Virus genome (UHGV): UHGV-0171999
From: a virus
Length of the DNA: 64,000 nt
Strand: one strand, 5' to 3'
A program made the translations under genes and the position numbers. Under the pieces are notes generated by a model. That model worked only from the letters and a program-made list of their open reading frames with translations. It did not search any database and was not told the DNA's origin. Below, piece by piece: positions 44,510 through 46,187 of the stretch (position 1 is the stretch's first letter; each line of letters opens with the position of its first letter).

Positions 44510-44606
44510 ATATGCTTTAAGAATTATTTGTTATTATTAACTCATATCGCACTGATTAATACCCTCTATCATCAAGGGTTCTTGCTTGAGAGCCTTTGTT
44601 AATAAT

Positions 44607-44856: not shown

Positions 44857-44931
44857 CTCCGTGTAGCTCAATGGCAGAGCGATCGCCTGTTAAGCGATTG
44901 GTTATAGGTTCGAATCCTATCACGTCCGCCA
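44857..44931 (+). tRNA. tRNA-like gene with anticodon GUU (Asn-type), acceptor stem only 4 of 7 bp paired
   Basis: D-arm GCTC-AATGGCA-GAGC, anticodon arm ATCGC-CTGTTAA-GCGAT, T-arm ATAGG-TTCGAAT-CCTAT, 3' GCCA; 5' CTCCGTG pairs poorly with 3' CACGTCC. Confidence 0.45.
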
Positions 44932-44935
44932 AATC

Positions 44936-45011
44936 CGAGGCATAGCTCAGAAGGAAGAGCAAGGACCTTCTAAGTCCTAGGTCGTAGGTTCGATCCCTAC
45001 TGCCTCGACCA
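44936..45011 (+). tRNA. tRNA-Arg (anticodon UCU), CCA encoded
   Basis: Acceptor CGAGGCA/TGCCTCG, anticodon loop CTTCTAA, T-loop TTCGATC. Confidence 0.8.
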
Positions 45012-45027: not shown

Positions 45028-45378
45028 ATGAAAGGTAATGTTTATTTAGTAGTTCATGATTTAACGTTCTATTTTAATCACAATGACACTGTTATTTCTG
45101 AACGTGTAATTAATTTGCTTTATCAGCATGCAGATTATGTTTATGTCGAAAACGAATATGGTCATTGGCAATTTCTCAAAAATCGTTCATTTGGTTTAGA
45201 TGGTTACGAATACTTTGAACGTAAAGACCTTTTAGATAAAATTCCGTTATCTACACAATATCAAAATCATAAGTCTTTATATAAATGCCGTCCAATTCGA
45301 AATGCTGAATCCGCGTATGAAGCAATTGATTTATGGCGTAAACGCCGTGAACAGATTGATTCTTTAAAAGAATATTAA
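45028..45378 (+). CDS. hypothetical protein within the tRNA region
   Basis: 116 aa ORF with GAGG RBS directly after tRNA-Arg. Confidence 0.6.
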   Translation: MKGNVYLVVHDLTFYFNHNDTVISERVINLLYQHADYVYVENEYGHWQFLKNRSFGLDGYEYFERKDLLDKIPLSTQYQNHKSLYKCRPIRNAESAYEAIDLWRKRREQIDSLKEY

Positions 45379-45380
45379 GA

Positions 45381-45690
45381 AACCGGGTCGCTACCGGTAA
45401 GTCGTCGGACTGATGTTCCCTGCGTAAGGACTGGCATTAACAAATCTTTACGATCTGTTAATGTCCCCTTACATCACAGCAGAAACGGCGCACAGAATTA
45501 TCGATTCGAGGAAATATCTTTGCCGTAAGCCGAGTAGCGTTTTTGACGGAACGTTCGGATATGGTCGAGATATGGCCTTTTAAAAATATTGAGTAGCGTC
45601 AACTGCTTAATAACCGGGTTCGAATCCCGGCGTTTCGTACAAACACTTGCCTTAGCAGGTGGAACCCCGACAAGGTTGCCGCAAGGCTTA
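45381..45690 (+). ncRNA. structured non-coding region, candidate small stable RNAs (T4 species 1/2-like)
   Basis: No plus-strand ORF over 310 bp; several hairpins; tRNA-like T-arm CCGGGTTCGAATCCCGG; ends at a terminator. Confidence 0.35.
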
Positions 45691-45717
45691 GCCCCGACCA
45701 AAAGGTTGGGGCTTTTT
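45691..45717 (+). terminator. rho-independent terminator closing the tRNA/small RNA unit
   Basis: GCCCCGACC-AAAA-GGTTGGGGC hairpin followed by TTTTT. Confidence 0.7.
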
Positions 45718-45850
45718 GGTATCTAGGCCTTTCTGGACCTCTCTAGGCATCATTTAGTTTCTACCCTTTATAATATATTATCCTATCCTTTAATTGCCCC
45801 TTTCATCCCTAGAATTCCCTAAAACTTTTTAAAAAATTTTTCACAAAACT

Positions 45851-45880
45851 GTTTACACCCCTGTTCTTCCATGGTACTAT
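45851..45880 (+). promoter_or_regulatory. T4-type early promoter
   Basis: -35 GTTTAC at 45851-45856, 18 nt spacer, -10 TACTAT at 45875-45880, preceded by A/T-rich UP-like tract. Confidence 0.6.
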
Positions 45881-45923
45881 ACAACTATCAACTACTGATA
45901 CAGAAAACAACTTGGAGAATGAA

Positions 45924-46187
45924 ATGGATAATTACGGCGAACTGTTCAACTTCTTTATGAAATGCGTTTCAGAAGATTTCGGTCGTACAGTGAATGATAT
46001 TAAAGTTATCGGTCCTGACCATCCGATGTTTGAAACTTACGCAGTAATGGGTAATGAAGATGGTCAGTGGTATACTGTAAAGGTTGTGATTAACATGTTC
46101 ACTGCTGAAGGTTATGTTAAACTGTCTTCTAAAGTTTACCATGATAACGACGAAATCGCAGAAGAATATTTCAATAATATGAAATAA
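45924..46187 (+). CDS. hypothetical protein
   Basis: 87 aa from ATG at 45924 with GGAG RBS; ORF-track start 45912 is TTG. Confidence 0.6.
   Translation: MDNYGELFNFFMKCVSEDFGRTVNDIKVIGPDHPMFETYAVMGNEDGQWYTVKVVINMFTAEGYVKLSSKVYHDNDEIAEEYFNNMK

Follow-up and report, generated by a model that had tools for sequence, protein, structure and literature searches.

The region that follows the tRNA cluster in the 64,000-nucleotide viral genome UHGV-0171999 (the window, to which unprefixed coordinates refer) very probably holds this phage's copies of two small stable RNAs of phage T4, species 2 (rnaD) and species 1 (rnaC), both known since the 1970s. Judged from sequence comparison, the probability of this reading is roughly 85%, a figure that covers the identity of the two genes as well as their nature as structured, processed RNAs. 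The source of the window is a Tequatrovirus, a T4-like phage, and the finding, being one of orthologs of known genes, is already known. What is added here is a covariation-supported fold for each RNA, of which an earlier description in the literature of the 1970s-80s is possible.

In the T4 reference genome (NC_000866), rnaD is annotated as 'species 2 RNA' at 71053-71171 (119 nt) and rnaC as 'species 1 RNA' at 70908-71046 (139 nt), in the order tRNA-Arg, rnaD, rnaC and then e.8. The synteny is kept in the window, where, on the plus strand, tRNA-Arg (44936-45011) lies upstream of the rnaD homolog (45375-45494, about 120 nt), a 6-nt spacer (45495-45500, GAAUUA, with AAAUUA as the T4 equivalent), the rnaC homolog (45501-45639, 139 nt), a terminator, and a gene with 99% identity to T4 e.8; rnaC and the terminator are also annotated at the homologous site in the GiZh record. 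The two rnaC sequences are identical at 137 of 139 bases over their full length, have the same predicted fold, and occupy the same place between rnaD and the terminator, ahead of e.8. Both substitutions are structure-neutral, one changing a U-A pair to U.G in a 10-bp hairpin and the other a U.G pair to C-G in a long arm. rnaD is about 88% identical to its T4 counterpart (45378-45493 aligns locally with T4 rnaD positions 4-118), with the 5' 47 nt and 3' 30 nt near-identical and helices P0, P1 and P2 common to both, whereas the central hairpin, where the differences are concentrated, is altered in sequence with compensated changes. A first-pass annotation of the letters alone had proposed equivalence to T4 species 1 and 2 and transcripts of 120-140 nt, and the end-to-end alignments, the synteny and the annotated T4 lengths agree with it on both counts. 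Its starting point of 45381 was about 6 nt too late, as the element begins at about 45375 and overlaps the TAA stop (45376-45378) of the upstream ORF.

A blastn search with the 340-nt region matched 806 phage records, nearly all from T4-like phages (of Escherichia, Shigella, Yersinia and Salmonella), and query coverage reached at least 80% in 680 of these. rnaC alone matched 765 phage records and rnaD alone 736, with rnaC and/or rnaD annotated at the matching spot in some GenBank records. Identity of rnaC is 99% or more in 504 records and at least 95% in 694 of the 765; rnaD is far more variable, with 99% or more in just 9 records and 60-80% in 167. Furthermore, rnaC is kept in at least eight genera, though the neighbouring spacers and the rnaD core diverge. 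The rnaC homologs come from Tequatrovirus, Mosigvirus (RB69) and Gaprivervirus, from Karamvirus (myPSH1140, PG7), Kanagawavirus (IME523, Kosakonia 305), Moonvirus and Tegunavirus (fHe-Yen9-01), and from two Klebsiella phages as well as IMG/VR and metagenome contigs. The covariance model of rnaC, R1, has a single match in the window, rnaC itself, at 161 bits. A strict 38-nt rnaC pattern had zero matches across one genome per bacterial or archaeal species, and 11 loci in a metagenome scan, all from close T4-like relatives that added no new diversity; with a loose gapped DNA pattern run over viral contigs, model R1 found no rnaC in 99 of the matches listed (L106-L204).

Both RNAs are non-coding and structured, and their folds are under purifying selection. 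The several hairpins noted in the first pass are present, and all three sub-segments fold well above dinucleotide shuffles (z = -3.61 for 45376-45494, -4.55 for 45501-45639 and -3.72 for 45640-45722), with none of 200 shuffles of 45501-45639 folding as well as the native sequence. The Rfam scan proposed with that annotation matched no family: Rfam 15 gave none for rnaC, rnaD or the trailer beyond. At the gathering score it reported tRNAs alone, both for the window and for six related loci, and every match obtained over 45300-45950 at E up to 10 scored far below threshold. This silence reflects the fact that no Rfam model exists for either RNA, and not any want of structure.

The region had also been called free of ORFs, which is not so in the literal sense, as frames of 40 aa (45461-45583) and 45 aa (45589-45726, with a TTG start) occur on the plus strand and one of 67 aa (45498-45701) on the minus strand; none of them is conserved in frame. 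These mechanical ORFs, together with the many GenBank records in which one or two 'hypothetical protein' CDSs are laid over rnaC and rnaD, are what could be said for the region encoding small proteins. That it does so is scarcely credible, since no frame stays open across all homologs, indels of 1-2 nt (not multiples of three) shift the frames, substitutions are compensatory in RNA helices, and the same DNA yields stable RNAs in T4.

In our structural model rnaC folds as an oversized tRNA, with a 7-bp acceptor-like end stem stacked on a canonical T-arm, and the minimum free energy architecture is identical in 21 divergent homologs. The 5' strand of the end stem, CGAUUCG (45502-45508), pairs with CGUUUCG (45631-45637) with two U.U mismatches. 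The third pair of this stem shows a compensatory A-U / G-C change (15 versus 13 sequences), in the Yersinia-phage lineage the two U.U mismatches are replaced by U-A and C-G, and the stem falls within 1-2 nt of the RNA ends annotated in T4. Next to it, a D-arm-like 3-bp stem, AGG/CCU (45509-45511 with 45576-45578), encloses an irregular 60-nt long arm (45514-45573) with the apical loop UUGACG (45543-45548). In the position of the anticodon arm is a 10-bp hairpin (45587-45612) with a 6-nt loop, CGUCAA (45597-45602), in which nine of the ten stem pairs covary. The T-arm, CCGGG-UUCGAAU-CCCGG, recognized as tRNA-like from the outset (CCGGGTTCGAATCCCGG), was found at 45614-45630, directly adjoining the 3' strand of the acceptor-like stem. 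It is 100% paired and two of its five pairs covary (CCGGG/CCCGG, CCUGG/CCAGG, CUUGG/CCAAG); the T-loop is not kept in Kanagawavirus, which has UGCAUGC. All of these elements are on the plus strand.

The covariation that the first pass had named as support for a structure is strong for both RNAs. For rnaC, 94.1% of the cells in a sequence-only MAFFT alignment of 18 sequences are paired and 23 pairs have changes on both sides; none of 500 shuffles reaches any of the measures, and slid controls are 37-43% paired. Extended to 28 sequences, compensatory change is seen in 31 of 56 pairs. In the D-arm-like stem and its 60-nt arm, helix 2 is 95.2% paired, with compensatory change in 11 of 20 pairs, and helix 3 is 97.6% paired, with such change in five of six. 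Conservation extends beyond the helices to the loops and single-stranded stretches. A tRNA-elbow contact between the GG before the D-like stem and the T-loop was considered and discounted, the G.U to C-G change in Kanagawavirus being one event of doubtful geometry.

UUGACG, the loop at the tip of the long arm, is fully complementary to CGUCAA, the loop of the 10-bp hairpin, and all six pairs of this loop-loop helix are kept in 28 of 28 sequences (100% paired). Two independent double changes preserve the contact, which was not included in the alignment model: Tegunavirus has UUGAUG with CAUCAA (C-G to U-A), and the Klebsiella phages have UUGGCG with CGCCAA (A-U to G-C). Phage P8 has a G.U intermediate. 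The contact may be intramolecular or intermolecular, covariation fitting both arrangements; because the long arm, at about 23 bp, is so much longer than the 10-bp hairpin, the contact may need a sharp bend or else be made within a dimer.

Compared with a canonical tRNA (RF00005), the rnaC ends likewise form a 7-bp stem on a 5-bp T-stem with a UUCGAAU loop, its four helices radiate in tRNA order, and its spacers in tRNA arrays are tRNA-like. In contrast, rnaC is 139 nt long rather than about 76, has a 60-nt arm in the position of the D-loop, and lacks a 7-nt anticodon loop, having a 10-bp stem whose 6-nt loop is sequestered in the loop-loop helix. Its acceptor stem carries two U.U mismatches in most lineages, with no encoded CCA (the tail is U-A-C-A-A). 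In the Klebsiella phages (L237:1636-1643, L238:1634-1641), rnaC encodes U-C-C-A after the acceptor-like stem and so has a fully tRNA-like 3' end, the corresponding bases being U-A-C-A or U-U-C-A in the other lineages.

This resemblance bears on a different reading, that the 3' portion of rnaC (about 95 nt) is itself a tRNA or tRNA pseudogene with an acceptor stem formed by the internal ACGGAACG and the 3' end CGUUUCGU. In T4-type sequences the two segments pair over 8 bp without a mismatch, and because of this pairing ARAGORN and some GenBank records call a 'tRNA' of about 95 nt over rnaC homologs, for instance tRNA-Phe (L008 7816-7911) and tRNA-Stop (L073:980-1073) by ARAGORN, and the labels 'tRNA-Met' in PG7 and 'tRNA-OTHER' in G9062; there is also a weak Rfam match, the best in the tRNA clan, to tRNA-Sec (16.6 bits, E = 2.1, against a threshold of 47). 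We nevertheless consider this reading very improbable. The internal acceptor pairing shows zero compensatory change, and a U to C change in its 3' strand goes with G to A in the partner, leaving A.C in 10 of 18 sequences. On none of the five measures does the pairing outdo any of 500 shuffles, and the variable G/A position closes an apical hairpin instead, as U.G or U-A. Furthermore, neither ARAGORN nor the Rfam tRNA model finds a tRNA in 45375-45720, and a 7-nt anticodon loop is lacking. Mis-calls of the 3' part of rnaC (as Phe, Stop, Met or OTHER) are found at the two loci named, at L239:1547-1641 and in many GenBank records.

The tRNA-like domain of tmRNA and the module of the bacterial YrlA / Y-RNAs are acceptor/T-arm mimics without a decoding anticodon, and their processing by tRNA enzymes is established. 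rnaC, in the fold preferred here, appears analogous to these domains, an analogy by which it too might be processed by tRNA enzymes. Unlike tmRNA, rnaC has neither a tag reading frame nor G3.U70, and no tmRNA was called by ARAGORN in the window. Unlike YrlA, in which the RNA ends form the Ro-binding stem, its ends form the acceptor-like stem. Neither the tmRNA nor the YrlA model of Rfam matches in 45300-45950, even at E up to 10.

rnaC occupies a tRNA slot in the arrays of other genera. Karamvirus, Moonvirus and an IMG/VR relative (L008) have a tRNA gene on either side of it, separated from it by 5-8 nt; in Kanagawavirus IME523 a tRNA ends 5 nt upstream of it, and in Tegunavirus and one further locus (L030) a tRNA follows after 8 nt. 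The fold is unchanged whether rnaC stands at the end of the operon, as in T4, or between tRNAs, as in Karamvirus and Moonvirus. rnaC and rnaD are independent modules, as some phages carry just one of them: rnaC occurs without rnaD in Karam-, Kanagawa-, Moon- and Tegunavirus, rnaD being found in Tequatrovirus and close relatives alone, and in Escherichia phage EcWhh-1 (L105:1201-1340) rnaD is joined straight to the trailer (...GGCGCACCGAACACTTGCC) with rnaC cleanly gone, model R1 giving no rnaC match at that locus. Two complementarities between the RNAs that were seen by eye, CGCUA/UAGCG and GUUCC/GGAAC, were rejected, as the RNAs are not co-inherited and the rnaC partners lie inside helices.

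Other features of these tRNA clusters were noted in passing. The tRNA clusters of Kanagawa-, Karam- and Moonvirus and of Klebsiella T4-like phages also contain another conserved non-coding element, about 150-180 nt long (L003:1745-1912, L005:1760-1918, L004:1262-1415, L239:700-868, L237:1257-1385 and L007:1262-1434). It ends just before tRNA-Met and has a covarying long-range helix (CAGAGAG/CUCUCUG, CUUGAAG/CUUCAAG, CUAAAGAG/CUCUUUAG); it matches no Rfam family and is absent from the window. Within the window, a fifth 'tRNA' (44857-44927), scored by Rfam at 59.6 bits and missed by ARAGORN, is a chimera in which the 5' end, CTCCGTGTAGCTCA, comes from tRNA-Pro and the remainder from tRNA-Asn. 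About 427 bp were deleted between shared copies of GTGTAGCTCA, which removed tRNA-Pro, Ser, Thr, Ile(CAU) and Tyr and left three acceptor-stem mismatches. A site resembling a T4 middle promoter (44511-44538: MotA box TATGCTTTA, 12 nt, TATTAT) lies just upstream of tRNA-Gln, and a near-consensus late-promoter motif, TATAAATG, is found at 45280-45287, inside the ORF upstream of rnaD.

In rnaD, the 5' 47 nt and the 3' 30 nt are almost invariant among homologs, and across 17 homologs 91.9% of the alignment cells are paired, a value reached by none of 500 shuffles. The RNA opens, on the plus strand, with the 5' hairpin P0 (45382-45398), a 5-bp stem of the form RCCGG/CCGGY around an invariant 7-nt loop, GUCGCUA. 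P0 is paired in 17 of 17 sequences, its closing pair covarying between A-U and G-C with G-U intermediates; the same hairpin was also detected on the minus strand by a terminator search. The main body (45401-45493, plus strand) consists of P1, P2 and P3. P1 pairs GUCGUCG (45401-45407) with CGGCG(C)AC (45486-45493) and is invariant, and P2 pairs UGAU (45411-45414) with AUCA (45473-45476), being 98.5% paired with one compensatory change. An alternative P2 from the minimum free energy fold was rejected, as it is 93.1% paired and shows no compensatory change. P3 (45424-45472) is a hypervariable central hairpin in which four of six base pairs covary; it exists in at least four very different sequence versions, every one of which folds as a hairpin.

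The upstream junction of rnaD differs from that of T4. There, rnaD starts 1 nt after tRNA-Arg, whereas here an ORF of 116 aa (45028-45378) intervenes between the two, its stop codon overlapping the start of rnaD. The ORF belongs to phrog_3355 and is 69% identical to RB69ORF150c; it has no Pfam domain, and Pfam searches of the ORFs neighbouring rnaD and rnaC found no RNA-binding domain. An ORF is also found between tRNA-Arg and rnaD in RB69, ime09, VEc20 and P8, which makes this arrangement a frequent form of the locus and no sign of a separate family. Because the ORF replaces the tRNA-Arg junction, the 5' end of rnaD, which is predicted at about 45375, cannot form here as it does in T4.

Downstream of the 3' end of rnaC, as annotated in T4, the primary transcript would continue into a 3' trailer (45640-45689, plus strand), in which folding places a hairpin, CACUUGC-CUUA-GCAGGUG (45644-45661), and a second, small one, GCC-GCAA-GGC (45678-45687). 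The trailer is conserved in T4-type phages (T4, GiZh, RB69) and not in other genera, and its approximately 50 nt are presumed to be removed during maturation. It is followed by the intrinsic terminator of the tRNA and stable-RNA unit (45690-45718, plus strand), with a stem of 10 pairs (seven of them GC) at 45690-45713, the loop AAAA and a TTTTT run. The first pass had seen a strong terminator at 45691-45717, which is real, with limits that were slightly off. The trailer also holds, at 45665-45678, a partial copy (CCCCGAC..GGUUG) of the terminator arms CCCCGACC..GGUUGGGG (45692-45711), and this first copy could compete for the 3' arm of the terminator. In phages of the ime09, VEc20 and P8 type, an ORF of about 153-157 aa lies between the rnaC trailer and the terminator region (L236:988-1461; L100:1577-2038); it has no Pfam domain and is missing from the window and from T4.

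How the two RNAs would be released from this transcript can be modelled from their folds. It seems reasonably probable that rnaC is matured in the manner of a tRNA, by RNase P and subsequent 3' trimming. To the processing machinery rnaC would resemble a tRNA, so that RNase P would recognize its acceptor/T-arm stack and cleave at its 5' side; the same cut would free rnaD with a 6-nt tail, and 3' exonucleases would then shorten both RNAs to their terminal helices. To make the 5' end of rnaD, an endonuclease would cleave the AU-rich sequence that precedes P0. We infer the RNase P dependence from the shape of rnaC and its context. Such a pathway would account for where the RNAs end in the T4 annotation, for the 6-nt spacer between them, for their metabolic stability, and for the place of rnaC in tRNA arrays.

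T4 deletions of the tRNA region reportedly grow on laboratory hosts, and thus any function of rnaC or rnaD would be conditional. The same dispensability would also suit a view in which neither RNA acts in trans, the two being leftovers, or cis elements (for 3'-end protection, or as entry or spacing sites for processing enzymes), kept for stability alone. Consistent with this, both RNAs are invariably located inside a tRNA transcription unit or at its end. We regard it as unlikely, since 694 of 765 records share at least 95% identity with rnaC, which at least eight genera retain while adjacent spacers and the rnaD core diverge, since conservation covers loops and single-stranded stretches as well as helices, and since the rnaC fold is kept at the operon end or between tRNAs. 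A further point against it is that a change in rnaD went with a large host-specific gain in virulence, as follows.

In T4, RNAC has been detected by Northern blot and both RNAs are classed as late RNAs (PMC9697503). Their function is stated to be unknown (PMC3014915; likewise PMC9697503, PMC12685909), and that none of these papers reports a function for either RNA could be counted in favour of there being no trans-acting role. The sole functional hint comes from the T4-like phage BW1, in which all three lines evolved on ECOR34 shared a single rnaD SNP, with virulence on that strain (RBG) rising from 0.17 to 0.98 after evolution (PMC12685909). The SNP could be standing variation, or it could mark an escape, with rnaD being sensed by a host system, rather than a gain of activity.

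Published descriptions of rnaC and rnaD as small or regulatory RNAs (PMC12685909, PMC9697503) would fit base-pairing sRNAs that target host or phage mRNAs, by way of GUCGCUA, GUUCCCUG and CAGCWGAAAC in rnaD and UUUUAAAAAUA in rnaC, and these unpaired motifs are invariant. This possibility is slightly more doubtful again than that of no trans-acting role. The mature RNAs, by the T4 annotation, are without the terminator U-tail typical of Hfq-dependent sRNAs, and rnaC is near-invariant over its whole length, which suggests a packed tertiary fold or protein surface, not a short seed.

Our best guess, and a tentative one, is that rnaC is a tRNA mimic and rnaD a separate effector. rnaC, without a decodable anticodon, would occupy a host or phage factor that recognizes the acceptor/T-arm side of tRNA, and rnaD, as a module of its own, would contact a host-strain-specific factor through its conserved loops. 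A bolder and somewhat less likely version holds that rnaC, a tRNA mimic in the arrays whose anticodon-position loop is locked by the 6-bp contact, within one molecule or in a dimer, would work jointly with the separately inherited rnaD on factors specific to the host strain, serving as a decoy to host enzymes or defence systems that are directed at tRNA, or else being the RNA sensed by such a system.

The annotation of the window is settled as two known non-coding RNA genes followed by a trailer and a terminator, in a region that is wrongly annotated with hypothetical proteins or a tRNA in many GenBank records. The alignments obtained here could directly seed an Rfam model, and the folds point to concrete mutants, namely in the loop-loop pairs and the terminal stem of rnaC and in swaps of the central hairpin of rnaD. 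Among phage RNAs whose function is still unexplained, the two rank with the oldest. If the decoy or sensed-RNA reading is true, it would explain how a convergent rnaD SNP unlocks a semi-permissive E. coli host, and rnaC, rnaD and the further unannotated element would constitute a class of phage tRNA-cluster RNAs that is missing from Rfam.
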